DNA from: a virus | Lineage: Duplodnaviria; Caudoviricetes | DNA: 36,362 nucleotides | Direction: 5' to 3' (one strand) | Virus record (IMG/VR): IMGVR_UViG_3300046778_000227 | Location: 1-36,362 of that record | Part shown: in pieces, positions 10,769-36,362 of the stretch | Numbering within the stretch: position 1 is the stretch's first letter | Layout of the letters: each line of letters begins with the position of its first letter | The notes under the pieces: generated by a model | What the model saw: only the letters and a program-made list of their open reading frames with translations | Told to the model about the DNA's origin: nothing | Database searches by the model: none | Made by a program: the position numbers and the translations under genes

Positions 10769-12904
10769 TTGGATCGTCCCACCTTTGACGAAATTGCATC
10801 GATCGCAGATGGCCGCGATATTACTCGGCCCTGGTTGGCTCCCTTGCTGGAGAGTCAAGATGAGATTTTGGAGACTAAAGGTGGGGGCGATTTGCTCGTC
10901 TATGAACAGGAATTGACGGATACGCAGATTGAGAGCGGCTACCAGCAACGGTTTAGTGCTTTTATTGGCTGTGAAACGGATGTGATTCCCGGTGGGAAGA
11001 AGCGCCTTGATATTAAGGCGGCTGACTTTGTGAGAGAGCAGCTTAGCGGGATTAATTGGGACGACATTTGTGAAAAGCAACTCTACGCCATCCATTACGG
11101 CTTTGGGGTGGCGGAATGTCTGTGGATGCGAGATGGGCAGAATATTGGGTTTGATGATACTCGCGATGGCATTCGGGTGCGGAATCGTCGGCGGTTTAAG
11201 TTTGCACCCGATCGCTCCCTGAGATTGATTGTGTGGGGCGATATGTTGCAGGGTGAGACGATGCCCGATCGGAAGTTTTGGGTGTTGCGAAGTGGGGGCG
11301 ATAATCACGATGAACCCTACGGACGCGGGCTAGGTCACAACCTCTACTGGCCCGTTTTCTTCAAACGCAATGATATGAAGTTCTGGCTGAGGTTTTTGGA
11401 GAAGTTTTCCCAGCCGACCGTGAAGGTGGAATATCCGTCTGGAATGCCCAAGGATGAGCAGGATAGGCTGTTGCAATCGGCCTATCGCATGGCATCGGCG
11501 TCGGCGTTGAAGGTGCCCCAAGGGACTGTGATTGATTTCTTGGAGGCGGGCAGATCTGGGACTGCGGACTATGTGAAGCTCTGGGAGTTGATGGATGCGG
11601 CGATTAGTAAGACTATTCTGTCGCAGACGATGACGACGGATAGTGGGTCGTCCTTGTCTCAGGCCCAGGTGCATGAGGGCGTTGCGGCGCGGCTGATTAA
11701 GCGCGATGCGGATTTGCTGTGCGGGTCGTTTAATCGATCGATCGTGCGGTGGCTGGTGGATTGGAATTATCCCGGCGCTGCCTATCCCAAGGTTTGGAGA
11801 AAGATTGATCCGGCTGAGGATTTGAAGGCAGTGGCCGATCGCGATCGGGTGTTGTTCGATATGGGCTTTAAGCTCACCCCAGAAAAGGTTGTTGAGGTCT
11901 ATGGCGAGGGCTATTACGATCCGTCCCAGCTTAAGGATGAGGCCCTTGATAAGCCGCCTTTGGTGAGTGTCTTGGGTGTGGATGGGACGACTGCGCTGGT
12001 GGGTTTCTTGCAGCAGATTGGACAGATGGGGTTAAAACGGGCGAATGCGATCGCGACGTTAACGGCGGTGTTTGGGATTGGGGCAAATGAGGCGGAGTTG
12101 ATGATTCCCGAACAGGCGGCGGCAGAGCCTGGTTTGGATCAGTTGTTTGATGCGGATACGGCCGCTCTACCCCCAGACGCGGCTGCAAATTCTGCTTTTG
12201 CTGAGGTGGAGTTTGCGGACAAGAAATGTAACCCGGCGAAGTCTCACCTCTGTATTGGGAAGACTGGAAAGGGGAGCTGCGTTAGTTTGACGAAGAAGTG
12301 TAGGGTTCCTGTGACGGGAGCAGCAAAGGAGGCTTCGGATTATACGGCGGCTCAGGCTAATCTTGAGACAGAGCAAGCAACCACTCTTGAACCTGCAAAG
12401 CCTCAGTCGATCGCCGATCGCATTCAATCAGGCGATTTGCCAGAACCTTTCGATCAAGAAAGATTTAATTTTGATGACCGGGATTTTGTTGTAAACGGTC
12501 CAGAAAAAGATAGCGAAGTCTCGCTTGGTGGAATTTACTACCAAAAAACGCTGGGTTTGACCGTGTTTACGATCGCGTTTGCTGTTGATGGAGAGTACGA
12601 AAGAGAAGACCCTGTAACGGGTGCTGAAAAAGCTCATAACAAAAGAGTGGCATTGGCTGTTTTGAAAGAAGCGAGAGATTGGGTTAAAGGGTTGCCGGAT
12701 GGTTTGATTGTCCACAACAATCCATCACAAGGGGATAGTGCAGCGAGTGGACGAGTCTCCATCTATTCGAGGGCGGGGTTTGGTCCGCTTGACGAAGAGG
12801 GATCGCAGTATGGGGTTGTCAAAGGTGGGAAGATTGTGCCATTAAATGAAAACGAAGCCAATCAATACTCTGAAGCTAGGGCTTCAAGGAAGAAAAAATT
12901 ATGA
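10769..12904 (+). CDS. Portal protein (Mu gp29/DUF935 family) with long C-terminal cargo extension
   Basis: AIHYGFGVAECLW, EPYGRGLGHNLYWPVFFK, WLRFLEKF, ISKTILSQTMTT and QAQVHEGV are DUF935 motifs; about 230 extra C-terminal residues. Confidence 0.9.
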   Translation: MDRPTFDEIASIADGRDITRPWLAPLLESQDEILETKGGGDLLVYEQELTDTQIESGYQQRFSAFIGCETDVIPGGKKRLDIKAADFVREQLSGINWDDICEKQLYAIHYGFGVAECLWMRDGQNIGFDDTRDGIRVRNRRRFKFAPDRSLRLIVWGDMLQGETMPDRKFWVLRSGGDNHDEPYGRGLGHNLYWPVFFKRNDMKFWLRFLEKFSQPTVKVEYPSGMPKDEQDRLLQSAYRMASASALKVPQGTVIDFLEAGRSGTADYVKLWELMDAAISKTILSQTMTTDSGSSLSQAQVHEGVAARLIKRDADLLCGSFNRSIVRWLVDWNYPGAAYPKVWRKIDPAEDLKAVADRDRVLFDMGFKLTPEKVVEVYGEGYYDPSQLKDEALDKPPLVSVLGVDGTTALVGFLQQIGQMGLKRANAIATLTAVFGIGANEAELMIPEQAAAEPGLDQLFDADTAALPPDAAANSAFAEVEFADKKCNPAKSHLCIGKTGKGSCVSLTKKCRVPVTGAAKEASDYTAAQANLETEQATTLEPAKPQSIADRIQSGDLPEPFDQERFNFDDRDFVVNGPEKDSEVSLGGIYYQKTLGLTVFTIAFAVDGEYEREDPVTGAEKAHNKRVALAVLKEARDWVKGLPDGLIVHNNPSQGDSAASGRVSIYSRAGFGPLDEEGSQYGVVKGGKIVPLNENEANQYSEARASRKKKL

Positions 12905-13085: not shown

Positions 13086-13562
13086 ATGAATCTACCTAAA
13101 TCCCCCACTCCCGAACAACTCAAGACGATCGTACAAGCCATCCTCCGAGACCAATTGGAGGATGACGCGGTGGTAACGAAGTTGGAGATTCCCGGTGACA
13201 AAACCTGGACGGCTTACTACACCACCCAAAAGCGATCGTTTGTCTGTACGTACCAGGACGGCTATTTTGAAAAGGGTCCAGTGAACGCAACAGACTCCGT
13301 AGACTTTACGGAGTCTACGGACTTTGAAGAACCGGACACCGTTGATTTCTACACCGATCGCCTCCGCACCACAGCAGGCAAAGAGGTAGATGGGTGGGTG
13401 AGCCAAATATCGGGGCTACTCGACAGCGCCGGAGACCTGGCCAGTTTCAGCGAGACCCTGCTGACGCTGTACCCCGACCTGAAGGGCGATCGGTTGCGGG
13501 ATATTATGGGCGATGCAGTCTTGGCCGCGAGCATTGCGGGGAGTTTAGAAGGCGATGCCTAG
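13086..13562 (+). CDS. Protein carrying the detached C-terminal segment of DUF935 portals
   Basis: VDGWVSQISGLLDSAGDLASFSETLLTLYPDL...LRDIMGDAVLAASIAG resembles the usual portal C-terminus that overlaps the MuF start. Confidence 0.6.
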   Translation: MNLPKSPTPEQLKTIVQAILRDQLEDDAVVTKLEIPGDKTWTAYYTTQKRSFVCTYQDGYFEKGPVNATDSVDFTESTDFEEPDTVDFYTDRLRTTAGKEVDGWVSQISGLLDSAGDLASFSETLLTLYPDLKGDRLRDIMGDAVLAASIAGSLEGDA

Positions 13563-14918: not shown

Positions 14919-14963
14919 TTTGCGGGGCATTTCGCACCGTAATCTGTCAAAATGCCCCGCAAA
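14919..14963. repeat. Dispersed palindromic element, copy 1
   Basis: TTTGCGGGGCAT-N21-ATGCCCCGCAAA. Confidence 0.95.
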
Positions 14964-16664: not shown

Positions 16665-16676
16665 TTTGCGGGGCAT
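16665..16676. repeat. Lone half-site of the dispersed palindromic element
   Basis: TTTGCGGGGCAT with no partner arm 21 nt downstream; 4 nt upstream of the 16660 start codon. Confidence 0.85.
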
Positions 16677-16732
16677 TTTGAGGGTTAAGCGATCGGCTCA
16701 ATTCGATTTCATTGATTTTGAGGAGCCATTTA

Positions 16733-16777
16733 TTTGCGGGGCATTCTCAAGATTGAATCTTTGAAATGCCCCGCAAA
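16733..16777. repeat. Dispersed palindromic element, copy 2
   Basis: TTTGCGGGGCAT-N21-ATGCCCCGCAAA. Confidence 0.95.
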
Positions 16778-16779
16778 TA

Positions 16780-17022
16780 TTACTGAAAAATGCTGGCTGT
16801 ACCTTCAATTCGAGCCTGGGCTAAAGCTGCGTAGAAATTTGCTAGACCGGGATTGTTTTCCCGATCGATCGCCTCTTGTTTTAGGTTCATGGCTTCTTGC
16901 AAATTGAGCATATTGTTAATCTGTTGAGATTGGCGAAGAGTGCCGATCGCATACTCTAAATCAAGTGGGTCGATCGATTCACTGTCAATATTTAGGGCGT
17001 TAAGAAGGTCATTGATATCCAT
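16780..17022 (-). CDS. Hypothetical 80-aa protein
   Basis: MDINDLLNAL...; starts 5 nt after the HNH stop; last gene of the leftward operon. Confidence 0.55.
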   Translation of the reverse strand: MDINDLLNALNIDSESIDPLDLEYAIGTLRQSQQINNMLNLQEAMNLKQEAIDRENNPGLANFYAALAQARIEGTASIFQ

Positions 17023-17027
17023 GATGT

Positions 17028-17354
17028 CTACCTTTGCGAGAGAAGTTTGTAGCCTAGCACTAGCCTGGATTTCGCGGCATCGGTGTTTCGGTTCCGATCG
17101 GCTTGATTCGTTACCCAGTGTGTTGACGAATGACACCCATTTGGATTGCTTTTGCTATGGCAATTTTTACAAACTGGAAAAACATGAATACCGGGTACTT
17201 CACGGTCTTTGATTGGCCCGTCTCTGTCCCTATAACAGGCATGGTGAACCTGCTCAGAATTCCGAATCAAACACCAACAACATTTTCCGCCTGTGGCTGT
17301 GTGAGCCAAGAAGAGAAATGGTCGGTCCCAATGTTCGCCATAACGATCGGTCAT
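17028..17354 (-). CDS. HNH-like zinc-binding endonuclease
   Basis: CCWC...QVHHACY...VFPVCKNCH pattern. Confidence 0.7.
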   Translation of the reverse strand: MTDRYGEHWDRPFLFLAHTATGGKCCWCLIRNSEQVHHACYRDRDGPIKDREVPGIHVFPVCKNCHSKSNPNGCHSSTHWVTNQADRNRNTDAAKSRLVLGYKLLSQR

Positions 17355-18841
17355 GGCATATTCCTCAAAACATGTTTCAGCTCTGCAAGATGCTCTCCAC
17401 TCAAGCCCTTCCCGGTCAGTCTGGTGAATTCACGGACTAGGGCAATATCTGCACCTGGATTCTTGGTCACGAAGATTTTTAGCAGGGCTAGATAGTCACC
17501 CTGAACTTGTTCATCTGCTGCCACCACTGGGTTCTCCGCAGGACGGGGAGATTCGGGACCATTGACGACGACGGGAGCCACGATCGGAATTCCTGAGATT
17601 TGCAGTTTTTTATCAGCGAATCTGACGCAGACATACCGATCGCCTGTCTTCTGGGGATAGAGCGAAACTTCGTCTACGATCGCCCCAGCCTTGCCTGGTT
17701 GTAGGCCGATGTTAACGTAGTTGTCAGACATCTGGGCCGCTCTCCAAAGCAATACAATCTCAAGCTGTTGCAGTATGTTTTTAGGGATGCACAGCGAACC
17801 TACGGCGAGTGTTTGCGTTCCGATTTTGAATGTCACTTTCTGTTTTAATCCACGTCGCAGGATGTTAGCGATTGCCCTTACAGCTTCTTTCTGTTCCGCT
17901 TCCGTCCACATCCCCATGAGTGCAGGAACTTCATCCATAATGAAAAGCGCTGGATCAAATTGTGGCTTCTGTTCTTTTTTCGATAAAGCTTTTGCCGTTG
18001 CACCAGCCCGATCGTCTACCAGTTTAGAAATTTTCACAAGGACACTGAAGCAGTCCGTGGACTTGATAAAGACGTGACGCCCAACTTCTAGGTCTAGCCA
18101 AGTGTTGGGCGGTGAATCATCGTGCGAACTCCCGTAGTCTGGGTCACAAATCCAAACTGAACCCCGATCGCCATGCTCGCGGATGAACCCGGCCAGGACG
18201 ATATTGGTCAGCAGGAACGATTTCCCGTCTTTGGTCTCGCCCACGATCGCGCCACACCGTTTCGCCCATTGGCCGAACCAATCGATCGCCAATTCTTCCG
18301 ATGCCCGATCGCTGATGGTTTGTTCTAATGTCGCCTGGGCCATCAATCTAGCCGGGATGTCTAGCCCCTCGGCAACCACCTCAGCATCGACAGCGATCGT
18401 CTCTTCTTGGGGATTCACTAGGTCTAGCAAGTTCCAGCGCCTGAGTGCCCCAAATTGCATGGATTCAGGAAGCCTTGAGACAATCTCTAGGGACTTCATC
18501 CAACCTTGGGCCTCTTTGCCTCGCATGGTTGTCTCATGCGAGATGTTCAAGTCTGCGGCGAGATGCTGACGACTGGCCTGGTCAAATTGCTGCCCCATCC
18601 GTTGCAGGGTTGTGTCCCGGCGAATGGAGTAGGCTCCGGCGAGTGGACAGCCGATCGCCCCGACATATAGCCCAGCCTTTAGCCAGTTGGGGGCTGAGTC
18701 GCGGAAGGCGAAAACGCCGCCTAAACTCACGACTCCGGCGACGATGAGGCCGATCGCGACCTTCTGACGACGATCGGCTTCGGCGGTGACACCTTCTCCA
18801 ATCTGGTAGGTCTGTTTTAGTTGGTCAAAGGACGGATTCAT
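17351..18841 (-). CDS. Membrane-anchored FtsK/HerA-superfamily P-loop ATPase
   Basis: Two N-terminal hydrophobic helices; Walker A GETKDGKS, VWICDP, Walker B LFIMDEVP, and ILRRGLKQKVTFKIGTQ (arginine finger/TQ motif); likely start MNPSF at 18841. Confidence 0.75.
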   Translation of the reverse strand: MNPSFDQLKQTYQIGEGVTAEADRRQKVAIGLIVAGVVSLGGVFAFRDSAPNWLKAGLYVGAIGCPLAGAYSIRRDTTLQRMGQQFDQASRQHLAADLNISHETTMRGKEAQGWMKSLEIVSRLPESMQFGALRRWNLLDLVNPQEETIAVDAEVVAEGLDIPARLMAQATLEQTISDRASEELAIDWFGQWAKRCGAIVGETKDGKSFLLTNIVLAGFIREHGDRGSVWICDPDYGSSHDDSPPNTWLDLEVGRHVFIKSTDCFSVLVKISKLVDDRAGATAKALSKKEQKPQFDPALFIMDEVPALMGMWTEAEQKEAVRAIANILRRGLKQKVTFKIGTQTLAVGSLCIPKNILQQLEIVLLWRAAQMSDNYVNIGLQPGKAGAIVDEVSLYPQKTGDRYVCVRFADKKLQISGIPIVAPVVVNGPESPRPAENPVVAADEQVQGDYLALLKIFVTKNPGADIALVREFTRLTGKGLSGEHLAELKHVLRNMP

Positions 18842-19145
18842 AGCTATCCTCCAGTGGAATTGTGGGGGTGTAGGTCCAGTGTCCGACGCCGATGATGGTC
18901 CAGTAGAGGACGATCGTGACCAGGGCACACAGTCCAAAATTAACCAAAATCGGATTTAGGCCACGGTTGTAGGAGATGTACGATCGGCTCTGGGTTAAGC
19001 CTGTGGCGGCAAAGATGCCCACAACAACGACGGTAGCAATCAGATGAAGCCCGTTGAGATTGGGCATTGCGGCGCTGAGAAATCCAAAAAACAGCGCTCC
19101 TGAGAACGCTGATAATCCGATGGAGAAATATTGCAGTGGGACCAT
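18825..19145 (-). CDS. Small integral membrane protein (about 3 TM)
   Basis: Three hydrophobic stretches in 106 aa. Confidence 0.7.
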   Translation of the reverse strand: MVPLQYFSIGLSAFSGALFFGFLSAAMPNLNGLHLIATVVVVGIFAATGLTQSRSYISYNRGLNPILVNFGLCALVTIVLYWTIIGVGHWTYTPTIPLEDSYESVL

Positions 19146-19148
19146 GAC

Positions 19149-19610
19149 TTAAAAATCAAAAACGTTTTTGTTTTCGCCTGTGTAACCTGCGACTGTTCCC
19201 TGTGCGCCTGCGGTGGCAACGCTATTTTTGAAGCCGATTCGGGCGTGACTGGCAACGGATCGGGTCTGGGCTGCGACTAGCTGGGAGTTGGCTTGGTTAA
19301 TGGCTACGTCGTGATTCAGCCTTGCGACTGCGGCTTTGGCATAGGCTCCAACCTTTTTCTGATTACTGCGGAGCCGAGACGAGTACACATCGGCGGATGC
19401 CATCAATTGTGCAGCGTCCCGTTCGTCTTGGATGGCGACTTCTGGGTTGGTGGAGCTGAAGGAAATATTTCTAAATTCATTCAGCCGACCGCGAAATTCT
19501 CCGTCGATTTGTCCCAGACCCGACATCCCAGCGCCGTCGCCGAAGGTGGATTTGGTTATGGCGGATCCGTATCCAAAGAATCTACTTACTAATTCGATCG
19601 CACTACTCAT
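19149..19610 (-). CDS. Hypothetical Ala/Gly-rich helical protein
   Basis: Tightly packed in the operon. Confidence 0.65.
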   Translation of the reverse strand: MSSAIELVSRFFGYGSAITKSTFGDGAGMSGLGQIDGEFRGRLNEFRNISFSSTNPEVAIQDERDAAQLMASADVYSSRLRSNQKKVGAYAKAAVARLNHDVAINQANSQLVAAQTRSVASHARIGFKNSVATAGAQGTVAGYTGENKNVFDF

Positions 19611-20123
19611 TTATTTCCCTCCTGGGCAACTAAGACTAAAGACACAAATGCTACGGTTCTCGGCGGCTTTCTCGGCAATTTTGCGAGTGGCGGCTGATTC
19701 TCTGGCTGATATTCGTTCTATCCGATCGAGTTCGGCTTTTTGCTGAGCCGCTGGGGATTGCGCCGACATAGAGGCGATCGCATAGCCTCCTATCCCGGTC
19801 AAACAAACTAACCCAAATCCAATCAGCCCTAGGGCGATCGGGTCTTGGGTGAGCCTGACTTGCGGCTGATGCTGTCCGGTGGCCCGGTTCAGGGCGGAGA
19901 TTAGGTTGGCGAATTCGTCAGGGGTGGCGACGATCGAAATACTCCCCGTCCCTGAATTTTGAATCTGGGCGGGGAGTGTGGGCAGATGGATACGGGTGGG
20001 CCGAGCGGCGAGTGATTGGCTTTTCGTGGGGACGATGGGGCTAGTGGTAGTCGATGGGTTGAACATCGTGGAGACGGGGGTGTTCTCCGTAGTCCATGCG
20101 TCCGGTAGGCCGTTGGAAGGCAT
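19611..20123 (-). CDS. Single-pass membrane protein with coiled coil and C-terminal Cys pair
   Basis: IALGLIGFGLVCLTGIGGYAIA TM segment; ends SICVFSLSCPGGK; the start may be 20066. Confidence 0.65.
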   Translation of the reverse strand: MPSNGLPDAWTTENTPVSTMFNPSTTTSPIVPTKSQSLAARPTRIHLPTLPAQIQNSGTGSISIVATPDEFANLISALNRATGQHQPQVRLTQDPIALGLIGFGLVCLTGIGGYAIASMSAQSPAAQQKAELDRIERISARESAATRKIAEKAAENRSICVFSLSCPGGK

Positions 20124-20212
20124 GATAAATGATTCCTATGACTAAGAGGGTGGTTAGTGGGACAAGGGCATACCAGTGAAGCTTTGAGCGGGGCTTGATA
20201 CAGCGGTTCAGT

Positions 20213-20518
20213 TCAGAGGAGAGTTGTGCCTGCTGTACTAATGCAGTTTGAAAAAAAGCTGGCCTCGGCTCCCGCTCCCGCCTTGAGTCCTTCCTGTAGT
20301 CCTTGGACAAATCCCCGCTGGGAGGCTTCGGTCAACGTCAGGGCGACGTTGAGGCCGAGGGTGCGTTTGGAGCTTTCGATCGCGGCGACCTGCGTGTCTA
20401 GCTCTGTCTGTGGGTCCTCGGCGGCTTGGGGGGCGTTAAAGGTGATGTCTTGACTGGCCCGTTTCGATCGGGCCTTGCGGGCTAGTTTTGAGGGCGTTTG
20501 GGGGATGATGTCAGACAT
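20213..20518 (-). CDS. Hypothetical coiled-coil protein, possibly extending to 20041 with a C-terminal TM via a frameshift
   Basis: Removing one base of A7 at 20251-20257 joins it to the frame encoding WYALVPLTTLLVIGIIY. Confidence 0.55.
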   Translation of the reverse strand: MSDIIPQTPSKLARKARSKRASQDITFNAPQAAEDPQTELDTQVAAIESSKRTLGLNVALTLTEASQRGFVQGLQEGLKAGAGAEASFFSNCISTAGTTLL

Positions 20519-20834
20519 TGAATAGCTCCTTTATTCGGGATAGGCATTCGGGATAGAGGCGTTTAAAGACGGGGGATGAGTACGATCGGGCTTGATAGCT
20601 GGAGAGTCCGGCGATCGTCCACAGCGTTGCCGCTTGGGATAGGTCGATCGGGCGTTTTTGGGTGGCGTTGAGTTCGGTTCCGATAGTCCGACGGCACCAA
20701 TCGCTCCAAGTAGAACGCGGGATTTCTCGCTCTATTTCCTGCTCGATCGCTTTTTTTAACGAACCCAGGGGGATGGTTAATTCGTTGGGCGGAGTATCGT
20801 TTTTAATACTCCGACGTGTCGGAGTTTTTTGCAT
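20511..20834 (-). CDS. Putative DNA-binding regulator heading the membrane/ATPase operon
   Basis: LKKAIEQEIEREIPRSTWSDWCR is HTH-like; palindromic sites lie at and upstream of its start. Confidence 0.45.
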   Translation of the reverse strand: MQKTPTRRSIKNDTPPNELTIPLGSLKKAIEQEIEREIPRSTWSDWCRRTIGTELNATQKRPIDLSQAATLWTIAGLSSYQARSYSSPVFKRLYPECLSRIKELFNV

Positions 20835-20879
20835 TTTTCAGTCACCGTAAGGGTTTCAAAGCTCCGACGTGTCGGAGTT
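20809..20879. promoter_or_regulatory. Twin palindromic operators
   Basis: CTCCGAC-GT-GTCGGAG(TT) at 20809-20826 and 20862-20879, identical and 53 bp apart. Confidence 0.7.
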
Positions 20880-20894
20880 GGTTTTTGACTTTTT

Positions 20895-21161
20895 TCAGGT
20901 TTTTGGCGGTTCTGGGCTTAGGGTTCTGGTCCGATCGGCCTTGCCCAAAACCTCAATCAATAGGTCAGCCTGAAGCATCGCATCTTCAATCATTAGATGG
21001 GTAGCCGTGGCCTTTTCAGGATTTGCATTCATCCCAGCCAGAAGCAGCACAGCAAAATGCTCCCGCTTACTCATGCCTACCCGATCGGCGATCCGCAAGC
21101 CCTGGTCATTCGGAAATGCCGGGACCGATCCGATCGGCCTTAAAGGTCTTTGGTCAGTCAT
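20895..21161 (-). CDS. Conserved small phage protein (PAFP...GMSKREHFA type)
   Basis: PAFP...GM(T/S)xR(D/E)xFA motif common in phage early regions. Confidence 0.7.
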   Translation of the reverse strand: MTDQRPLRPIGSVPAFPNDQGLRIADRVGMSKREHFAVLLLAGMNANPEKATATHLMIEDAMLQADLLIEVLGKADRTRTLSPEPPKT

Positions 21162-21547
21162 GAGTCAACCTCTTCATCTTCATATTCATCGCCAGAGCCA
21201 TCGCCATCGCCTGAGCCTGAGCCAGAGCCATAGCCTGAGCCATAGCCAGAGCCATAGCCAGAGCCAGAGCCATCGCCATCGCCATCGCCAGAGCCATCGC
21301 CATAGCCATCGCCATCGCCTGAGCCATAGCCTGAGCCAGAGCCATCGCCATCGCCATCGCCAGAGCCATAGCCAGAGCCAGAGCCTGAGCCATAGCCTGA
21401 GCCATAGCCTGAGCCAGAGCCTGAGCCATAGCCTAAGCCATAGCCTGAGCCATCGCCAGAGCCTGAGCCATCGCCATCGCCATAGCCAGAGCCATAGCCA
21501 TAGCCAGAGCCATAGCCTGCGCCATCGCCGATCGGAGCTTTACGCAT
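21158..21547 (-). CDS. Gly-rich repeat protein (GSGYGSGDG)n
   Basis: Imperfect 6-bp-period tandem repeat at about 21190-21530; this frame couples with both neighbouring genes. Confidence 0.7.
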   Translation of the reverse strand: MRKAPIGDGAGYGSGYGYGSGYGDGDGSGSGDGSGYGLGYGSGSGSGYGSGYGSGSGSGYGSGDGDGDGSGSGYGSGDGDGYGDGSGDGDGDGSGSGYGSGYGSGYGSGSGSGDGDGSGDEYEDEEVDS

Positions 21548-24871: not shown

Positions 24872-27653
24872 CGGACTATCCCCAACCGAAAATCTGACAA
24901 CCGATCGGCCCATTATAGCACGGGATAAGGATTTGGAAGAATTTCGTAAGTCTGCAATCCCCGATCGGTTAACCCTCGCAAACGTACAATTCGTTGAGGG
25001 ACGTGACGCGGCAAAACTTTTTAAGCCGCTCGATACCACCTCTAAAGGTTTTGACCTAGGGCGAGGGAAAGAGCAGTGGCGAAAGTGGACTCACAGCGAC
25101 CAGGGCGGGGCGATCGTACAGGGTGGCTGGATTTTCTTTGGCTGCAATATGGACGGCACCCCGGCGACGGTTCCACTCTTTAAGCCCAACAAGCCCCGTG
25201 AGGACGATTCAGTTCCCGGGAAAACTAAGCTTATCAAGTATGAGACCCCACCCAAATCCGAGGCAACTCCACTTTTGCCCTGGGTTACTTGGGAGTTTGG
25301 TCTACAAATTGCAGCAAACATTTCAAATCAAGCGGAGAACAGTTATGTCGAAAGGTTTCAAACCTTTATCGCTAGAGAGCAGGCGGCGCAGGAAGAACCT
25401 GATAGCGATCGTCAACCGTCAGGATCGTCTAGCGTTAATTCAGTACTTTCGCCAGATATTGCCGATGTGCTCTCCAGGACTTCTTTCGGCGAACTTAACG
25501 AACCTTCTGGCGGAAGAATTGACCGAGCTTTGCGTTCAACCGACCCAACTTTCTGGCTATGGCACCAATCCGTTGGTGGCCCAGTTGCAGTTTGTGAAGG
25601 ACTTAAAAAGGCAAAATCTTTAATTGCCCATGGTGTCGCCGCCGTCGCCATTCGTGGCATCACGCAGTGGCATCAGAAGGGATCGAAACATCTGCATCCC
25701 CTGATCGCCCAACTCCTCCAACCCGACCAAACTGTCTACATCATCTTCGACCAGGACAGCAAGGAGACGACCCGCAAAGCCGTGCGAAAACAGGCCGTGG
25801 ACTTGGGAGCGGCGATCGAAGCTATGGACTGCGTACCGCTGGCAGTGGGCTGGGATGAGGCGATCGGCAAGGGCATCGACGACGCGCTGTATCTGAAAGG
25901 GCTGGGCGCTAAGAACTGGCTAGAGTACATACTAGAGAAAGCCGTTCCCCCGATCGAAAATCTCCCCGCTGCTGAGGCCAAGACTGCAAATATCGATCGG
26001 CTGTCGGCGATCGTGGCTTCTGCTCCGGTCTGGCAGACCGAAGATAGAATCGGGATGATTGACATCCCAATCAACAGCCACAAAGAGTCGATTTCCCTCA
26101 AAGACCCTCGGTTCAGAAGCTGGCTCGCGGCGGAGTTTTACGAGAAAACTGGGCGGCATTGTTCGTCTGATGCGATCGGGCAACTGACAGAACGCCTCAC
26201 CGGACAAGCTCTCTCCGCACCGACCCATAAAATCTTTCACCGCGTCGCCCGAATCGGCGAGGAAATTTTTATTGACCTAGGCGATCGGGACCACACCATC
26301 ATCAAAGTTTGCGGGGCAGGATGGGCCATTCACGAAGGCGATTGCCCCGCAAAATTCCGAAGACCGAACTCAATGAAGGCGTTGCCAGTTCCCAGTAAAC
26401 ATGGGGACTGGACTGGTTTAAAGAAACTTCTGAACCTGCGAGATGACGATTGGATTTTGCTGCTGTCGTGGCTGAGTTGGGGGTTACACCCGAACAGCCC
26501 TCACCCTGTACTCATTCTCAACGGAGAACACGGCACCGCAAAATCATCCACTTGCGAAATCATTAAGCAATTATTGGATCCGAGTAAGGCGCTTTTACTC
26601 TCAATGCCAGAGGATGCCGAAGGACTTCAGGGCCATGCCAGTAACCGTTGGGTCTTGGCCTATGACAACCTGTCAGGCATTTCCAAGAAGATGTCCGACC
26701 TGCTCTGTACCGTCGCCACAGAGTCTGGATTTGCCAAACGAATGCTGTACACAGACGCGGATGAAACAATTTTTGAAGGCGTTCGTCCGATCGTTCTCAA
26801 CGGAATTGAAGCACTGGCAACTCGCCCGGACTTGCTCGATCGATCCATCATCCTCAACCTCCAGCCCATCACCGACGAAAATCGCATGACCAAGGGGGAG
26901 CTAAACGCCTTGCTGAAAGATTGCGAATCAAACGTTTTCGCCTGCCTGCTCAACTCTCTCGCTCAGGGCCTGCGCCGACTGGACACGACTCGGCCCAGTT
27001 CCCTCGGACGCATGGCCGATTTTCACCAGTGGGGCCATTGCACCGAAACGGCCTTCGGCTTTGAACCTGGCAGCTTTGAAGCCGCCTATCAGTCGAATCG
27101 ACGAATGCTAAACGAGACCGCGATCGACAATGACGCGATCGCCACCGCACTGATTAGCCTGCTCGACACCAAGGATTTCGTAGGCACTGCCTCTGACCTT
27201 CTGACTGAACTCGGTAAGATGGTTACAGAGGAACAGCGCAAGGCTCCCGACTGGATTAAATCCCCCAGTGTCTTGGGCCGTCGTCTGGCTCGACTTGCTC
27301 CAGAGCTTCGCAAGCGTGGCTATGAGTTCTCGAAGTGCAAGCGGGATGGTCCTAACCGCATTCTCAAGATTGAGAAAATAATTGTCCCTGAGTCAGTCCC
27401 GATCGTCATCGAGGAGGTGATTGAATTCACGGCTGAGTATCACGAACCGACTGAACCCACCGAGCCGCTCGAAGTCGGTGAGGATGTGGTGTTCGTCGAT
27501 TCGGATGACGAGGAACAGAATCGCGTCCACTTCTACAAGTTGCTGGATTTTGACATCGATGTTGGCAGTTGCACGATCGAGATGGCTCTCGGAGGACAGA
27601 AGTGCGTTAGTCGCCTGGAATGGCTGAAGCGAAGGGAGGAACGATCGGCGTGA
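24852..27653 (+). CDS. Replication protein: DUF3854/TOPRIM-like primase fused to a P-loop ATPase/helicase
   Basis: FKPNKPR...IKYETPP, VAVCEGLKKA, YIIFDQD, GKGIDDAL; Walker A GEHGTAKS, LAYDNLS, RPDLLDRSI. Confidence 0.85.
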   Translation: MIMLTNNGLSPTENLTTDRPIIARDKDLEEFRKSAIPDRLTLANVQFVEGRDAAKLFKPLDTTSKGFDLGRGKEQWRKWTHSDQGGAIVQGGWIFFGCNMDGTPATVPLFKPNKPREDDSVPGKTKLIKYETPPKSEATPLLPWVTWEFGLQIAANISNQAENSYVERFQTFIAREQAAQEEPDSDRQPSGSSSVNSVLSPDIADVLSRTSFGELNEPSGGRIDRALRSTDPTFWLWHQSVGGPVAVCEGLKKAKSLIAHGVAAVAIRGITQWHQKGSKHLHPLIAQLLQPDQTVYIIFDQDSKETTRKAVRKQAVDLGAAIEAMDCVPLAVGWDEAIGKGIDDALYLKGLGAKNWLEYILEKAVPPIENLPAAEAKTANIDRLSAIVASAPVWQTEDRIGMIDIPINSHKESISLKDPRFRSWLAAEFYEKTGRHCSSDAIGQLTERLTGQALSAPTHKIFHRVARIGEEIFIDLGDRDHTIIKVCGAGWAIHEGDCPAKFRRPNSMKALPVPSKHGDWTGLKKLLNLRDDDWILLLSWLSWGLHPNSPHPVLILNGEHGTAKSSTCEIIKQLLDPSKALLLSMPEDAEGLQGHASNRWVLAYDNLSGISKKMSDLLCTVATESGFAKRMLYTDADETIFEGVRPIVLNGIEALATRPDLLDRSIILNLQPITDENRMTKGELNALLKDCESNVFACLLNSLAQGLRRLDTTRPSSLGRMADFHQWGHCTETAFGFEPGSFEAAYQSNRRMLNETAIDNDAIATALISLLDTKDFVGTASDLLTELGKMVTEEQRKAPDWIKSPSVLGRRLARLAPELRKRGYEFSKCKRDGPNRILKIEKIIVPESVPIVIEEVIEFTAEYHEPTEPTEPLEVGEDVVFVDSDDEEQNRVHFYKLLDFDIDVGSCTIEMALGGQKCVSRLEWLKRREERSA

Positions 27654-27851: not shown

Positions 27852-27897
27852 TTTGCGGGGCATTTAGGGCGATCGTCTTTGCAAAATGCCCCGCAAA
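27852..27897. repeat. Dispersed palindromic element, copy 3
   Basis: TTTGCGGGGCAT-N22-ATGCCCCGCAAA. Confidence 0.95.
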
Positions 27898-27989: not shown

Positions 27990-28034
27990 ATTGCGGGGCA
28001 TTAAATCACCAAATCGCGCGCGATGCCCCGCAAA
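27990..28034. repeat. Dispersed palindromic element, copy 4
   Basis: ATTGCGGGGCAT-N21-ATGCCCCGCAAA. Confidence 0.93.
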
Positions 28035-28665: not shown

Positions 28666-28710
28666 TTTGCGGGGCATTGTCTAACCCATTCCCTCAAAAT
28701 GCCCCGCAAA
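28666..28710. repeat. Dispersed palindromic element, copy 5
   Basis: TTTGCGGGGCAT-N21-ATGCCCCGCAAA. Confidence 0.95.
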
Positions 28711-29212: not shown

Positions 29213-29451
29213 GTACGAACTGTGTACGAAGTTTTGGGCGATCACCTGTATCCCTATCTATTCTTGCTGTTTTGAACTTGCGTCTACCACTTTGGGGTAG
29301 TAGGGGTCGCAAGTTCAAATCTTGTCATTCCGATCGATGTTAGGCCATGCACAGAGCTAGTTCTAGCCTAGAGCATGGCTTTTCACTTCAGCCATTTCCA
29401 GATATTTTCGGACATTCGATCGCCCCTTTTGTGTACGGATTGTGTACGAAG
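29210..29451 (+). other. attP site (core plus paired arm-type repeats)
   Basis: Arm pairs TGAGTACGAAC-TGTGTACGAAG (29210-29231) and TGTGTACGGAT-TGTGTACGAAG (29430-29451) flank a tRNA-derived core just downstream of int. Confidence 0.8.
29287..29333 (+). other. 3' half of tRNA-Pro(GGG), the att core; not a complete tRNA
   Basis: Anticodon loop TTGGGGT, variable GGGTC, T-arm GCAAG-TTCAAAT-CTTGT, acceptor strand CATTCCG-A; no D-arm or 5' acceptor strand. Confidence 0.8.
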
Positions 29452-29521: not shown

Positions 29522-29864
29522 AAAAGTCACATTCCCGACACAACCAGCAAAAAACCAGTAAAACCAGCAAGCCTTTTTTTACTGGTTTTACTGGAAGCCT
29601 TATACAGTGCAACTTTCAGAAAGACAAAACCAGCAAAACCAGTAAACCAGTAAATCCCTTACCTTTTAAGGAAAAAGAAAAAAAGAAAATAAATATAGAG
29701 CCAATAGAAAAGCCAATAAAAAGCCCGTAAAGGGAACCGAATTTACTGGTTTGCTAGGTTTGCTGGTTTGGGATGTTGCTATGACTGGGTTTGAGGCCGA
29801 CCAGTAAAAAAAGGCTTGCTGGTTGCTTCTGGTTTTTGCTGGTTGTGTCGAGAATGTGACTTTT
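29522..29864. other. Putative replication origin: large inverted repeat with ACCAG(C/T)AAA iterons
   Basis: Arms of about 65 bp at 29522-29586 and 29800-29864; inner inverted iteron clusters at about 29627-29655 and 29741-29769; A-rich centre; non-coding. Confidence 0.7.
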
Positions 29865-30263: not shown

Positions 30264-30308
30264 TTTGCGGGGCATTTTGCCCCACCACCCTGCAAAATGC
30301 CCCGCAAA
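30264..30308. repeat. Dispersed palindromic element, copy 6
   Basis: TTTGCGGGGCAT-N21-ATGCCCCGCAAA between convergent stops at 30260 and 30316. Confidence 0.95.
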
Positions 30309-30315
30309 TGTTGCA

Positions 30316-31635
30316 TCACCAGCCCGCAAAATCCAACATCTCCTCACTGGCAAAATCGATCGAACTCTTCCCCACCACCTCAACCCCAGCCCAATCGATC
30401 GCACTTTCCCCCGCCGCCATAATTGCCAGGAACAAAGCCCAAGTGCGATCGGCGTGACCATTCGAGTCCCGATCGGCATCAAAGCGCGGAGTGCCGACAG
30501 CGGACACCGATTTTTTCAGCTTATGCAAATCGTCCCGTAGTTCTGGCAGCGGCGGAATCCGAAGCCCCCGCGTCTCGAATCGGCGCTTTCCTTCCGTCGC
30601 CAACGCCAACTTATTCGCCGAGCCAAAAATCACCCCCTCCACCATCGACCCATATTTTTTCTGCGCCCGCTCCACCACCATCTCCCCCATGCCCGATTGA
30701 TCGAAGCAGGCCCGACTAATCCGATAGTGTTTCCAAAGCCGATCGACGATCGCCTCCTGTTCCTCAAACGAAATCCGCCGCTCCACCACCAGCTCACGCA
30801 CCCACAAAATATCGCCCACCCGCTCCAGGACGATCGCAACCCACAGGTCATTGCGCCGAGCAATATCCACCCCCAAATAGCAGGGATAGCCCGCGTACTC
30901 ACTCGGCTTGCCCGCCTGCTCATCCTCACAGCTTGCAATCAATTCAAACCCAAGCCAAGCCGACGCTTCATCTAACCATTGCAACTCGAATTCCTGTGCC
31001 CAAGCGTCCTCATCCGCCAGAGCCGATCGCAGCTCCACCACATCCCGATCCAACCCCTGCGCCACCGCCTGATAAATATCGACCTGGTGTTTTGACCAAG
31101 TGCCGTCGTTAGACTGCATCAGATCGTAAAACTTGTTCGCCTTCCCATTGGGAGTAGACGTAATCCGCAAATCAAATCCACGAGAAACGATCGGGAACAT
31201 TGCCTTCCAAATCTCCCGACTGTCGTGATGAAACGCAAACTCATCCAGGAATACATTCGCCGAAAACCCGCGAGCTGTATCAGGATTCGCAGGCAGCGCG
31301 GTGATGCGTGACCCATTAGGGAGCTGAGCCTCAAGCGCTTTGTATTTGCCTCCCCATTCATATTCGATCGTCTCAAACGCCGCCTCATAACTCTTGAGAT
31401 GACGCATCACCCCTTCATTCAAAGCCTCGTAAGCCTGCCGTTCTCCCCGGCTAAGAATGACCCACCGATCGCGAGACCCGCGAGACTCCGCAAACAAACA
31501 GCGCTGCACAATCTCCAGCGTCGTCGTCCAGGTCTTCCCGGTTTGCCGAGCGAACATGCCGATTTTGAACCGGGACTGATCACGCAGCCAAGCCCGTTGA
31601 TAGTCATAGAGTTCGATCGCGAATTTAGATGCCAT
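30316..31635 (-). CDS. terL: Terminase large subunit (Mu gp28-like)
   Basis: LYDYQ, ARQTGKT, TARGFSANVFLDEFAF, ITSTPNG, LGVDIAR, FDQSGMG, GHADRTWALFLA. Confidence 0.95.
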   Translation of the reverse strand: MASKFAIELYDYQRAWLRDQSRFKIGMFARQTGKTWTTTLEIVQRCLFAESRGSRDRWVILSRGERQAYEALNEGVMRHLKSYEAAFETIEYEWGGKYKALEAQLPNGSRITALPANPDTARGFSANVFLDEFAFHHDSREIWKAMFPIVSRGFDLRITSTPNGKANKFYDLMQSNDGTWSKHQVDIYQAVAQGLDRDVVELRSALADEDAWAQEFELQWLDEASAWLGFELIASCEDEQAGKPSEYAGYPCYLGVDIARRNDLWVAIVLERVGDILWVRELVVERRISFEEQEAIVDRLWKHYRISRACFDQSGMGEMVVERAQKKYGSMVEGVIFGSANKLALATEGKRRFETRGLRIPPLPELRDDLHKLKKSVSAVGTPRFDADRDSNGHADRTWALFLAIMAAGESAIDWAGVEVVGKSSIDFASEEMLDFAGW

Positions 31636-32083
31636 AGATCGCCTTTGTTACACTCGCTAGCACTTCTGGATCTAAAACCTTTGGTTTACTCTCAACGACT
31701 TCGATCGTCGAAACAATCTTATCCACTCGCTCAAGCACCTTGAAAGCGACTTGAGCCTTCACATTTGGAGGTGTCTCAGGGTTTGCTAGCAAGTCGTCAA
31801 TCACGTCCATTGCGGCATCGATCGCCTTATTGTTTCGGGCCTTAATTGTCCGCATGGCATCGTCATGGGTTGCCTGAATTTGCTTGTCAAGTTCTGCCAG
31901 AAAAACAGGTGACTTTTGCCATCGTCGCAAGGTCATTGGGACAACCCCCACCTGTTCAATCACGGCTGCCCGTTTTTCTCCTAGACAAAGGAGTTCAATC
32001 GCCTTCATCTGTAAGGGCTGTAGGCGTTTGCTCCGCTGTGCGTTTTTGTGCGTTTTTGTTCCCTTTCTAGTCATTATTCCCAT
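31625..32083 (-). CDS. terS: Terminase small subunit (N-terminal HTH)
   Basis: QMKAIELL...QVGVVPMTLRRWQKSPVF; directly upstream of terL. Confidence 0.7.
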   Translation of the reverse strand: MGIMTRKGTKTHKNAQRSKRLQPLQMKAIELLCLGEKRAAVIEQVGVVPMTLRRWQKSPVFLAELDKQIQATHDDAMRTIKARNNKAIDAAMDVIDDLLANPETPPNVKAQVAFKVLERVDKIVSTIEVVESKPKVLDPEVLASVTKAIYGI

Positions 32084-32903
32084 CCCTCAACACCGGGTGA
32101 GCGAGGGGACGAAGCTCCTCCCCTCGCTCACCCGGACGCATATAAATCAAACCCGCCACACTCGCCACCATGCCTGCAATATTGGCAATCTTGCCGACCT
32201 CCTCCTGAGCCTTCGTCGCATTCCAACCGCACACCGAAAGCATCGTGACCGCGAGACCGATCGTCAGATACTTCAGATGCTCATGATGCACTTTCAATCG
32301 GTCTTCCTGCTGTTGGTCGCGTTCACTGGCCAGCGCAATCGCGGTCCGCACCTCAGTCGAAATCGATTGGAACCCGCGTTCCATATCCGCCTGGAGATCG
32401 CTCTTCAAATCATCGATCGAATCAATGCGTTGATTTAATTCCATCATGGCTTGTTGCTGCAAATTCAGCTCTTGTTGAAGTGTTTGGAGGTCGCGCCGTA
32501 GCAATGCGATCGCCTCCGCTTCAAATCCTTGAGTCGGAGGTTCGTCGCCTCCTAACTCTAAACGCCCTTTGCTAGAAAGCTCCGCTCTATAACCATCTCC
32601 AAAGAAAATATCAATTTCCATCCCATCCCCAAACGTCAACGGCTCCCGAATTCGCTCACCCAAAAACCAAACACCACTTCCACTAGGCTTGCTACCCTGC
32701 CCATCCACAACCAACCACGCATCCCCCGATCGCACCAACCTCGCCTGCACCCGCGAACAAGCCTGCACCCCTCGCCCAATTTTGTAATTCGTCTCAGAAG
32801 ATCGCCCAAAACTGACAGTAGACTGATTTTGCAAGTCAACCTTGCGAACGGTTAAAAGCGTCCCATCTTTAAATTCTTTGAGTAGCACATTGTTTTCTAG
32901 CAT
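32067..32903 (-). CDS. FHA-domain / coiled-coil / C-terminal membrane protein
   Basis: VSFGRS...CSRVQARL...WLVVDG...SGSGVW FHA pattern; heptad region; two hydrophobic segments. Confidence 0.75.
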   Translation of the reverse strand: MLENNVLLKEFKDGTLLTVRKVDLQNQSTVSFGRSSETNYKIGRGVQACSRVQARLVRSGDAWLVVDGQGSKPSGSGVWFLGERIREPLTFGDGMEIDIFFGDGYRAELSSKGRLELGGDEPPTQGFEAEAIALLRRDLQTLQQELNLQQQAMMELNQRIDSIDDLKSDLQADMERGFQSISTEVRTAIALASERDQQQEDRLKVHHEHLKYLTIGLAVTMLSVCGWNATKAQEEVGKIANIAGMVASVAGLIYMRPGERGEELRPLAHPVLRDGNND

Positions 32904-33261
32904 CTAAATCTCGGCTTTTGAACGATCGAAGAATAATAAAGATATGCCGCTCAGTTAGACCAAATTCAAGGGCCGCCTGACGACAGGAATAGAGCTTTAA
33001 AAAATCGAAAATAGCCTTATTCCGATTCCTAATCACCAAAGGACTCGACCTCCGACAATGCTTTTTAAAATTAGGAACATCAAAGGTTCCACCTCCGTAA
33101 AAGCGCTGAAGTTTTTGAGTCGATTCCTCTCCAATCAGTGAATACAAGGACAACAAGCTCTTAGAACTTCTTCGCCCGATCGGAACATACAAGCGCGTCC
33201 CACCATGCTTTTCAACGAGTTTTTCTAGAGATTCCTGGCCTAGTAATTGTTCAAGAAACAT
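32869..33261 (-). CDS. Mor/C-family transcription activator
   Basis: HGGTRLYVP / YGGGTFDVP, RNKAI, AALEFGLTERHIFIIL. Confidence 0.8.
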   Translation of the reverse strand: MFLEQLLGQESLEKLVEKHGGTRLYVPIGRRSSKSLLSLYSLIGEESTQKLQRFYGGGTFDVPNFKKHCRRSSPLVIRNRNKAIFDFLKLYSCRQAALEFGLTERHIFIILRSFKSRDLDARKQCATQRI

Positions 33262-35959: not shown

Positions 35960-36362
35960 ATGTATTGCACCGAAGCCGATTTAATTCGATTGTTTGGATT
36001 GTCTGAGATTGAGAGTTTGTCTCAGCTCGACTATCCCGGTAACCCCGCGATCGACACGGTGCGAGTGGATGCAGCCTGCGACTATGCAGCCCAAGAAATT
36101 GATTGCTATTTAGCGTTGCGTTATGCGTTGCCGATCGCATCAGTGCCGATGGTGCTGACTAACAAAGCCGCCGATATTGCTCGTTATCAGCTAGAGCATA
36201 ATGACCCTCGCGAGGACGTGCGAAAACGCTACGAAGACGCGATCGTCTGGCTCAAGTTCGTAGCAGCCGGAAAGATTGGTCTAGGGCTAAATCCGATCGG
36301 TGAGGAAGTGGAAAGTGACAGTCCCACCTACTCCGTCGCCGCCTTGCACCCGGAGCCTATAT
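35960..36362 (+). CDS. Mu gp36-like (DUF1320) protein, 5' part plus overlap
   Basis: MYCTEADLIRLFGLSEIESLSQLD... after GGAG; open to the window end. Confidence 0.85.
   Translation, partial: MYCTEADLIRLFGLSEIESLSQLDYPGNPAIDTVRVDAACDYAAQEIDCYLALRYALPIASVPMVLTNKAADIARYQLEHNDPREDVRKRYEDAIVWLKFVAAGKIGLGLNPIGEEVESDSPTYSVAALHPEPI
36064..36362 (+). repeat. Terminal direct repeat (circular assembly overlap), copy 2
   Basis: Matches 1-299. Confidence 0.95.

Follow-up and report, generated by a model that had tools for sequence, protein, structure and literature searches.

An FtsK/Tra-like ATPase operon of cyanobacterial plasmids and temperate phages, a candidate double-stranded DNA translocation system

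Introduction

In Streptomyces, the ATPase TraB and three to seven diverse, coupled spd genes transfer double-stranded DNA and spread it through the mycelium, as set out in the available sections of two papers (PMC4447253, PMC12857230). Reviews of conjugation, in the parts accessible to us, place FtsK-type transfer of double-stranded DNA in actinomycetes, and the only conjugation class given for cyanobacteria in the accessible text of PMC4027160 and PMC12282955 is MPF_C, defined by VirB4 and homologs of VirB3, VirB6, VirB8, VirB9 and VirB10 (PMC4027160). A phage may also carry such functions: the transfer of ZL12 requires tra and two adjacent genes (PMC3583192; see also PMC4487206). The cells of Anabaena filaments share one outer membrane and are connected by septal nanopores (PMC9426583, PMC10653889). 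Here we describe an operon of eight genes, A to H, in a tailed-phage genome, the IMG/VR record IMGVR_UViG_3300046778_000227 (36,362 bases, analysed whole and called the window below). Its gene F encodes a membrane-anchored, FtsK/Tra-like ATPase. With a probability of roughly 55%, the operon encodes a TraB/Spd-like complex that translocates double-stranded DNA for cell-to-cell spread without a relaxase or a type IV secretion system (T4SS). We favour a DNA pump because an FtsK/Tra-type motor is joined to small membrane partners, most copies have a wall hydrolase, the operon is linked to mobile elements and no relaxase accompanies it.

The operon and its ATPase

The eight leftward open reading frames (ORFs) that the initial annotation of this DNA had described as tightly coupled were all confirmed (Table 1), the junctions from A to H measuring -8, 89, 0, 3, -17, -4 and 5 bp. 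F contains the motifs GETKDGKS, LFIMDE and GTQ, as first reported. Its two proposed transmembrane segments were recovered in part: hydropathy shows one clear segment and a second weak one (19-residue mean of about 1.0) in the window copy, and two in the Nostoc homologs. No Pfam or NCBIfam name could be given to F, no VirB4 model scored on it, and a sequence search of solved structures with F or its alignment A1 gave no match. An AlphaFold2 model built from a 27-sequence alignment (mean pLDDT 79) shows a helical N-terminus, a single motor domain (residues 180-426) and a small three-helix C-terminal domain (residues 450-494). In a fold search of 48,161 chains this model was closest to TcpA (Z 17.8, root mean square deviation 3.2, 219 residues aligned) and FtsK (Z 15.6, 3.9, 213), with EccC (14.5), VirB4 (14.2), HerA (13.3), TrwB (12.0) and STIV B204 (11.8) below them. 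Foldseek was concordant with an FtsK/HerA-like core and had EccC/EssC domains among its top matches. TraB was not among the structural chains listed, and we know of no solved TraB structure.

A profile of 145 family sequences (A2), too divergent for pattern scans, was tested on six reference proteins and gave 40 bits to TcpA, 27.5 to pIJ101 Tra, 13 to ZL12 Tra, 12 to TcpB and 0 to the VirB4-like TcpF. The PADLOC defence models matched none of the eight window proteins, and two of the 17 proteins scanned gave weak matches only. Judged by predicted fold, profile and PADLOC, which agree with one another, the ATPase groups with FtsK, TcpA and Tra and not with defence-type HerA, in line with the FtsK/TraB affinity first proposed. 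Walker A K207 and Walker B E304 are invariant in 145 of 145 sequences; the sensor residue is Q343 in the window and histidine in 76 of the 145. Arginine occupies only position 332 in 57 sequences, only position 330 in 49, both in 5 and neither in 34. This pattern, which is largely a split between clades, only suggests that the arginine finger moved within the family; Arg330 may stand in place of the finger that was lost.

Two operon types on mobile elements

We compared 54 loci, the strongest matches on long contigs, 52 of them with the ATPase ORF; two duplicates and several close relatives are included. At 38 of the 52, a homologous membrane-anchored gene lies immediately downstream of the ATPase, and in 25 of the 26 loci scanned for it this gene matched M23, lysozyme, SLT, NlpC/P60 or glucosaminidase families. 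An HNH-like gene is present in eight loci, none of them among those 38. Both operon types ride on phages, because head genes are found close to six of the eight HNH loci and to four loci of the hydrolase type (L100, L109, L112 and L113). The genes A to H are complete and in order in L005 and L009, which bears out the conservation of the cluster as a unit. On all eight Nostoc/Halotia megaplasmid loci read, the order A-B-C-D-E-ATPase is found without HNH or hydrolase (the sequence matches behind this gene equivalence are weak). The operon has as neighbours replication genes of the DUF3854, DUF3987, VapE-like or DUF5906 kind and tyrosine recombinases. A ParM-like partition gene belongs to the same operon at 16 of the 52 loci, and ParA/ParB genes are found at others.

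By profile search the ATPase family comprises at least 313 clusters at 50% identity. In a phylum-wide sample of 401 genomes its profile had matches in 5 (E up to 1e-20) and, in three orders, it matched 11 of 57, 23 of 173 and 29 of 401 genomes (E up to 1e-18), where the weakest matches may be other FtsK-like proteins and two large searches scored four candidates per genome. The named genome carriers are two Leptolyngbya, 'filamentous cyanobacterium CCT1' and an Oculatellaceae bin. Of the 72,556 plasmids searched, 17 records from Oscillatoria, Nostoc and Halotia carry the family; plasmid searches with three other family members gave no match. We take all 17 named plasmid carriers and the four named genomes to belong to filamentous genera. 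Oscillatoria acuminata PCC 6304 and Nostoc punctiforme PCC 73102 are cultured strains with the operon. F matched no GenBank phage, and in IMG/VR it had one other carrier. Every context read was a cyanobacterial plasmid, an integrative element or a temperate phage; the family is plasmid-wide and not phage-specific.

Some carrier plasmids measure 150-800 kb, and 8 of the 15 Nostoc/Halotia ones were typed as conjugative. At the other extreme, L013 is a circle of 11,264 bp with a recombinase, a helix-turn-helix (HTH) gene, a DUF3854 replication gene and the operon, and its 11 main ORFs gave no relaxase or VirB match. The complete 64-kb plasmid pOSCIL6304.01 was typed non-mobilizable and has no relaxase or VirB4 annotated in 7,817-64,128; pOSCIL6304.02 does carry a relaxase, which lies a long way from the operon. 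The absences of relaxase concern the known families, and a novel relaxase could escape these scans. Three other features of the carriers were recorded. In L121 (4801-6555, minus strand) the operon adjoins a telomere resolvase, placing it also on a probable linear replicon. A gene annotated 'four helix bundle protein' lies in or beside Nostoc operons (L161:8322-8687, L163:1617-1982, L166:2144-2383 and L168:4605-4961). In the Leptolyngbya contig L015 (14160-19650, plus strand), a CRISPR-Cas set with Cas3 is directly downstream of the operon.

A probable programmed frameshift in gene B

An ORF in the +1 frame, here called x, takes up the gap between B and C; it encodes a membrane segment and has no ATG; a TTG is found at 20310. 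The 'coiled-coil(+TM)' protein of the initial annotation therefore has its transmembrane segment in this overlapping ORF and not in the frame of B. Read-through of B into x gives a hydrophobic stretch at residues 116-134 of the longer product. A programmed frameshift in B, predicted from the slippery sequence AGC UUU UUU UCA, 13-14 codons before the stop of B, probably yields this second, membrane-anchored form. Across contigs the T run is constant in length. The out-of-frame membrane tail is present in 8 of 11 B-type genes examined; L098 and L127 lack it, as do L106 and most other upstream genes picked by position, and in L115 the membrane segment is in frame. Some B-like genes have HTH-like N-termini (L014, L127). 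All eight Nostoc-type plasmid loci carry the out-of-frame tail, six of them at UCC UUU CGU, the motif of influenza PA-X (PMC3498833), and in five a stop interrupts the +1 frame two codons upstream of the slippery site.

In the hydrolase type the upstream family, defined by sequence (members 29-57% identical), carries an in-frame G_GGA_AAG or A_AAA_AAG close to the stop, and after it a membrane tail in the -1 frame, in six of eight members; of the remaining two, one has a near-motif and one has none. Two further genes picked by position also carry G_GGA_AAG. The background, 601 ORFs of the same loci, included 4 with such a heptamer, all without a tail, and 106 with UUU_Y, one of them with a tail. 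The three sequences are shift-prone in E. coli, with UUU_Y shifting +1, according to the available text of PMC5009743. The directions are thus opposite, +1 at UUU_Y in the window's type and -1 at G_GGA_AAG in the hydrolase type. The shifted-frame tail might also be made by independent initiation instead of frameshifting, and an ATG does occur in the shifted frame at the Nostoc loci and in L006, L009 and L095.

The accessory proteins

B to E, G and H had no Pfam match above the cut-off, and A matched neither Pfam nor GntR models. Homologs of A were found in L005, L006 and L009; the genes at its position in other loci align weakly (14-16%), and one Nostoc equivalent matches HTH_17. A 16-bp palindrome occurs in two identical copies in the window, with 0.10 expected and no further copies at up to two mismatches. 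Upstream of A and within its first codons, these two copies are putative operators; the palindrome was absent from the top repeats of six related loci. Hydropathy agrees with one membrane segment in C and three in E, as first annotated. The profile of C matches the C protein of four distant phages (E 3.6e-5), and a bacterial SH3 domain terminates C in three of the four.

The helical character ascribed to D was reproduced by AlphaFold2, which models one continuous 90-residue helix (residues 56-146, mean pLDDT 67). Homologs of D are detectable by profile in distant phages and were not found in hydrolase-type operons; D has no WXG motif and no window ORF matched WXG100. A complex prediction of ATPase residues 1-185 with D scored 0.00 in two runs. 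G has the arrangement CxxC...HH...CxxCH, in which C25, C28, H37, H38, C62, C65, H66 and H75 are invariant in eight homologs, and we take this motif to be that of an HNH protein. Because L002 and L009 have a terminase next after the operon, G was considered as a terminase helper; this role was dropped because on the window circle the terminase lies about 13 kb away in one direction and 21 kb in the other, and because the HNH gene stays with the operon. The homolog P0023 (613 aa) is an ATPase of this family fused to a C-terminal HNH domain.

Proposed mechanism and alternative explanations

In the proposed mechanism the FtsK/Tra-like ATPase, as part of a complex in the inner membrane, would drive the circular double-stranded DNA of its own element into an adjacent cell, probably a neighbour in the filament. 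In the prophage or plasmid state A would repress the operon at the two palindromes. Soluble B and a membrane-anchored B produced by frameshifting at a low rate would together tether the DNA or scaffold the complex. F would form a ring, possibly with Arg330 in the place of the arginine finger, and C, D and E would form the passage, with C reaching the wall. In the sister type the membrane-anchored M23/lysozyme protein would open the wall; the window's type, without hydrolase, would depend on septal nanopores already present or on enzymes of the host instead. The HNH protein would be an accessory of the phage-borne version and may nick or open DNA. Spread between filament neighbours fits best because the operon shows no outer-membrane part and many carriers have partition or conjugation systems of their own; the conjugative typing of about half the Nostoc/Halotia carriers is in keeping with a distinct task for the operon, for example spread along the filament. 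The initial annotation had proposed an analogous translocation system in a filamentous cyanobacterium. That proposal is supported in part, by the affinity of the ATPase, the relaxase-free plasmid relatives, the peptidoglycan hydrolase that mostly adjoins it and the filamentous named carriers. The probable frameshift in B, the replacement of the canonical arginine finger and the plasmid-wide range of the family had been overlooked.

Several observations weigh against a DNA pump for cell-to-cell spread. TcpA and pIJ101 Tra retain the canonical arginine finger, in place of which the window's clade has Leu332, and because 34 of the 145 sequences have no arginine at either 330 or 332, some or all motors of the family may be weak. 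A motor-domain tree with TcpA and two Tra proteins left the deep affinity unsettled, the three outgroups not being monophyletic. The C-terminal domain of TraB is a winged helix that binds DNA repeats; the three-helix C-terminal domain of F gave no DNA-binding match above the bar in an Atlas structure search. No clt-like cluster of 8-bp direct repeats was found near the operon, and the repeat cluster at 29540-29850 may instead be an origin. TcpA, to which the structure of F is closest, serves as a coupling protein alongside a relaxase and VirB4, and the protein exporter EccC follows only about 3 Z units behind it. The accessory genes of the two operon types have no profile match to each other, and a wall hydrolase is missing from the window's type. 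Passage of DNA between separate filaments is left unexplained, because no outer-membrane component is visible, and the host of the phage is itself a deduction.

The FtsK fold also recalls FtsK and SpoIIIE acting on chromosomes, and the operon could be a segregation or stability device that keeps the closing septum free of the element's DNA or holds that DNA at the membrane during division, without horizontal transfer. A circular phage with a truncated integrase and no ParA, ParB or ParM match might have use for one, and the HTH-like N-termini of some B-like genes together with the predicted membrane-anchored form suit a tether. Yet a ParM-like gene is already part of the operon at nearly a third of the loci and ParA/ParB serve others, and an open septum needs no dedicated wall hydrolase, which 38 of the 52 loci have; we regard such a device as unlikely. 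If no DNA were moved at all, F could belong to a type VII-like machine for protein export or envelope remodelling, with D or another helical protein as its substrate or a contact structure as its product. The EccC/EssC domains among the top matches of F, the replaced arginine finger and the long helix of D without a transmembrane segment are in keeping with such a machine, which nevertheless seems quite improbable: EccC and EssC have three tandem FtsK domains and WXG100 substrates where F has one ATPase domain, D is a protein of 153 aa that lacks the WXG motif and any homolog in hydrolase-type operons, and TcpA and FtsK outscore EccC.

Pairs of an ATPase and an HNH protein are common in defence, and membrane sensors with such a pair could exclude other phages by cutting DNA or killing the cell. 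The HNH gene does accompany the phage-borne copies, one homolog is fused to HNH, and the operon lies downstream of a phage repressor-like gene. We give defence little credence all the same, as HerA ranks under TcpA and FtsK, the PADLOC result is negative for the window proteins, and 44 of the 52 loci have no such HNH gene, most having a wall hydrolase instead. A role of F in packaging DNA for release in membrane vesicles or non-tailed particles, coated by the small membrane proteins or by D, would draw on the structural match to the STIV packaging ATPase B204 and on small circular carriers such as L013. It is very improbable: B204 ranks far under TcpA, the operon is also carried by plasmids of 150-800 kb and by tailed phages with their own terminase, and no capsid-like gene is common to both operon types.

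Returning to translocation of double-stranded DNA, a wider proposal may be framed tentatively, at somewhat short of even odds: a pump free of relaxase and T4SS, widespread in filamentous cyanobacteria, would move plasmids and temperate phages along the filament, and a frameshift that evolved twice in opposite directions would set how much of the adaptor is soluble and how much is held in the membrane. If this were true, a prophage could colonise a whole filament without virions, and temperate phages would gain a non-lytic mode of spread. The movement of many 'non-mobilizable' cyanobacterial plasmids and the takeover of a filament from one cell would be explained, and the system could be put to use in distributing engineered DNA along filaments.

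The phage genome

The record is classed as linear and 85% complete. A direct repeat of 299 bp with 3 mismatches occupies both ends (1-299 and 36064-36362), and because the first 299 bases recur at the end of the record, the phage DNA most likely forms a circle of about 36,063 bp, probably complete despite that classification. The 51 window ORFs scanned include Mu-like head genes, tail-region genes, a two-subunit terminase, distinct from F, at 30316-32083, an Xre-type HTH gene and a 933-aa DUF3854 replication-type gene; none matched ParA, ParB, ParM, relaxase or VirB families. The initial annotation was right that the phage already has a terminase and that no relaxase or VirB set is visible. 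A tyrosine recombinase matches the C-terminal half of its family only. After it, at 29290-29340, is a stretch that we take, from its pattern, to resemble the 3' half of a tRNA gene, and other contigs diverge there; the broken integrase possibly adjoins a candidate attP at this place. With its circular form, plasmid-type replication gene and truncated integrase the element looks like a phage-plasmid, as had been suggested. Its DNA is present in freshwater metagenome runs, two of them possibly its source, and the relatives and the 237 CGATCG sites of the window point to a cyanobacterial host.

Table 1. Features of the operon and of other parts of the window
Feature	Position	Strand	Remarks
A, 107 aa	20511-20834	-	probable DNA-binding regulator, predicted
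B, 101 aa	20213-20518	-	small helical protein with basic N-terminus; soluble form
ORF x, +1-frame membrane tail	20041-20310	-	predicted C-terminus of 158-aa membrane-anchored B
Predicted +1 frameshift site	20249-20260	-	near the 3' end of B
C, 170 aa	19611-20123	-	single-pass membrane protein, C-terminal helix, two-cysteine motif
D, 153 aa	19149-19610	-	Ala/Gly-rich, no transmembrane segment
E, 106 aa	18825-19145	-	small membrane protein, three transmembrane segments
F, ATPase, 496 aa	17351-18841	-	N-terminally anchored, FtsK/TcpA/Tra-like
G, 108 aa	17028-17354	-	HNH-like
H, 80 aa	16780-17022	-	helical; kept in L005 and L009
Palindromic operator-like site 1	20862-20877		7-bp arms, 2-bp spacer; upstream of A
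Palindromic operator-like site 2	20809-20824		within first codons of A
Tyrosine recombinase, 146 aa	28772-29212	+	C-terminal half of the family
Repeat cluster AAAACCAG/ACCAGTAA	29540-29850		both orientations around A-rich core; candidate replication origin
Inverted repeat, seven places	14919-14963, 16665-16777, 26308-26353, 27852-27897, 27990-28034, 28666-28710, 30264-30308		
Inverted repeat at operon end	16731-16779		one of the seven

An inverted repeat of 45 bp (13-bp arms, spacer of about 19 bp) has 14 arm matches in the window against 0.17 expected. The same repeat lies 3' of H in L005 and is present in two other IMG/VR contigs. The contig of a relative omits 814 bp between two copies, which suggests recombination between them; a terminator, a binding site and a small mobile repeat are the candidates for its role. 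Elsewhere in the window, a 129-aa ORF rich in Gly, Ser, Tyr and Asp and made of 6-bp repeats directly follows a DUF6948 gene (21158-21547, minus strand). The portal protein is long (711 aa; 10769-12904, plus strand), a small ORF at 13086-13562 (plus strand) also matches the tail of the portal profile, and the head protein after the portal region has a GNAT-like match at its C-terminus. Directly upstream of the terminase genes are a gene with an FHA domain and one for a Mor-type activator (32067-33261, minus strand).

Comparison with known systems

As in the TraB/Spd systems of pSVH1, pIJ101 and the AICEs (integrative elements of actinomycetes that are also conjugative), a membrane-anchored FtsK-like ATPase is here combined with small, diverse, coupled membrane genes and a regulator (PMC4447253, available text), there is no relaxase or VirB4, and the hosts are filamentous. 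Unlike those systems, the cyanobacterial operons have diderm hosts, a shorter ATPase (400-540 aa against 650-725 aa), only a distant match to Tra in the profile (27.5 bits), no GntR-type TraR and no clt-like repeats that we could find, and they add an M23/lysozyme or HNH gene and a frameshift-type tail on B. The operon may be likened to TraB/Spd in its working without being a TraB member, as the GntR regulator is absent and the similarity remote. With the Tcp system of Clostridium perfringens pCW3 it has in common a membrane anchor at the N-terminus and an operon-borne wall hydrolase, with TcpA itself as the best structural and profile match, but pCW3 has the relaxase TcpM and the VirB4-like TcpF, neither of which occurs in the cyanobacterial operons. 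The MPF_C components are absent from the window operon, and on some Nostoc plasmids the operon co-occurs with full systems of that class. By gene content, the operon is neither MPF_C nor Tcp, both of which need VirB4.

The predicted frameshift resembles those of lambda G/GT and dnaX in the use of the same slippery sequences near the 3' end of a gene and in a minor extended product (PMC5009743, in part). It differs from them in that the extension would be a membrane anchor in a translocase operon and in that the two types shift oppositely. Our searches of open-licence papers turned up no description of the family, its cyanobacterial range, the hydrolase and HNH variants or the frameshift, and the accessible parts of PMC12282955 and PMC7159879 do not describe the family. 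ZL12 (pZL12, NC_013420) is, like the window phage, a tailed phage and circular plasmid with an FtsK/SpoIIIE-like tra gene, membrane genes and a regulator; it differs in its actinomycete host, its 90-kb size, its ParAB genes and its GntR regulator, and its Tra scores only 13 bits against the family. The ATPase family and its operon are conserved and apparently undescribed, while the phage-plasmid with an FtsK-like transfer gene is, as a concept, already known from ZL12.

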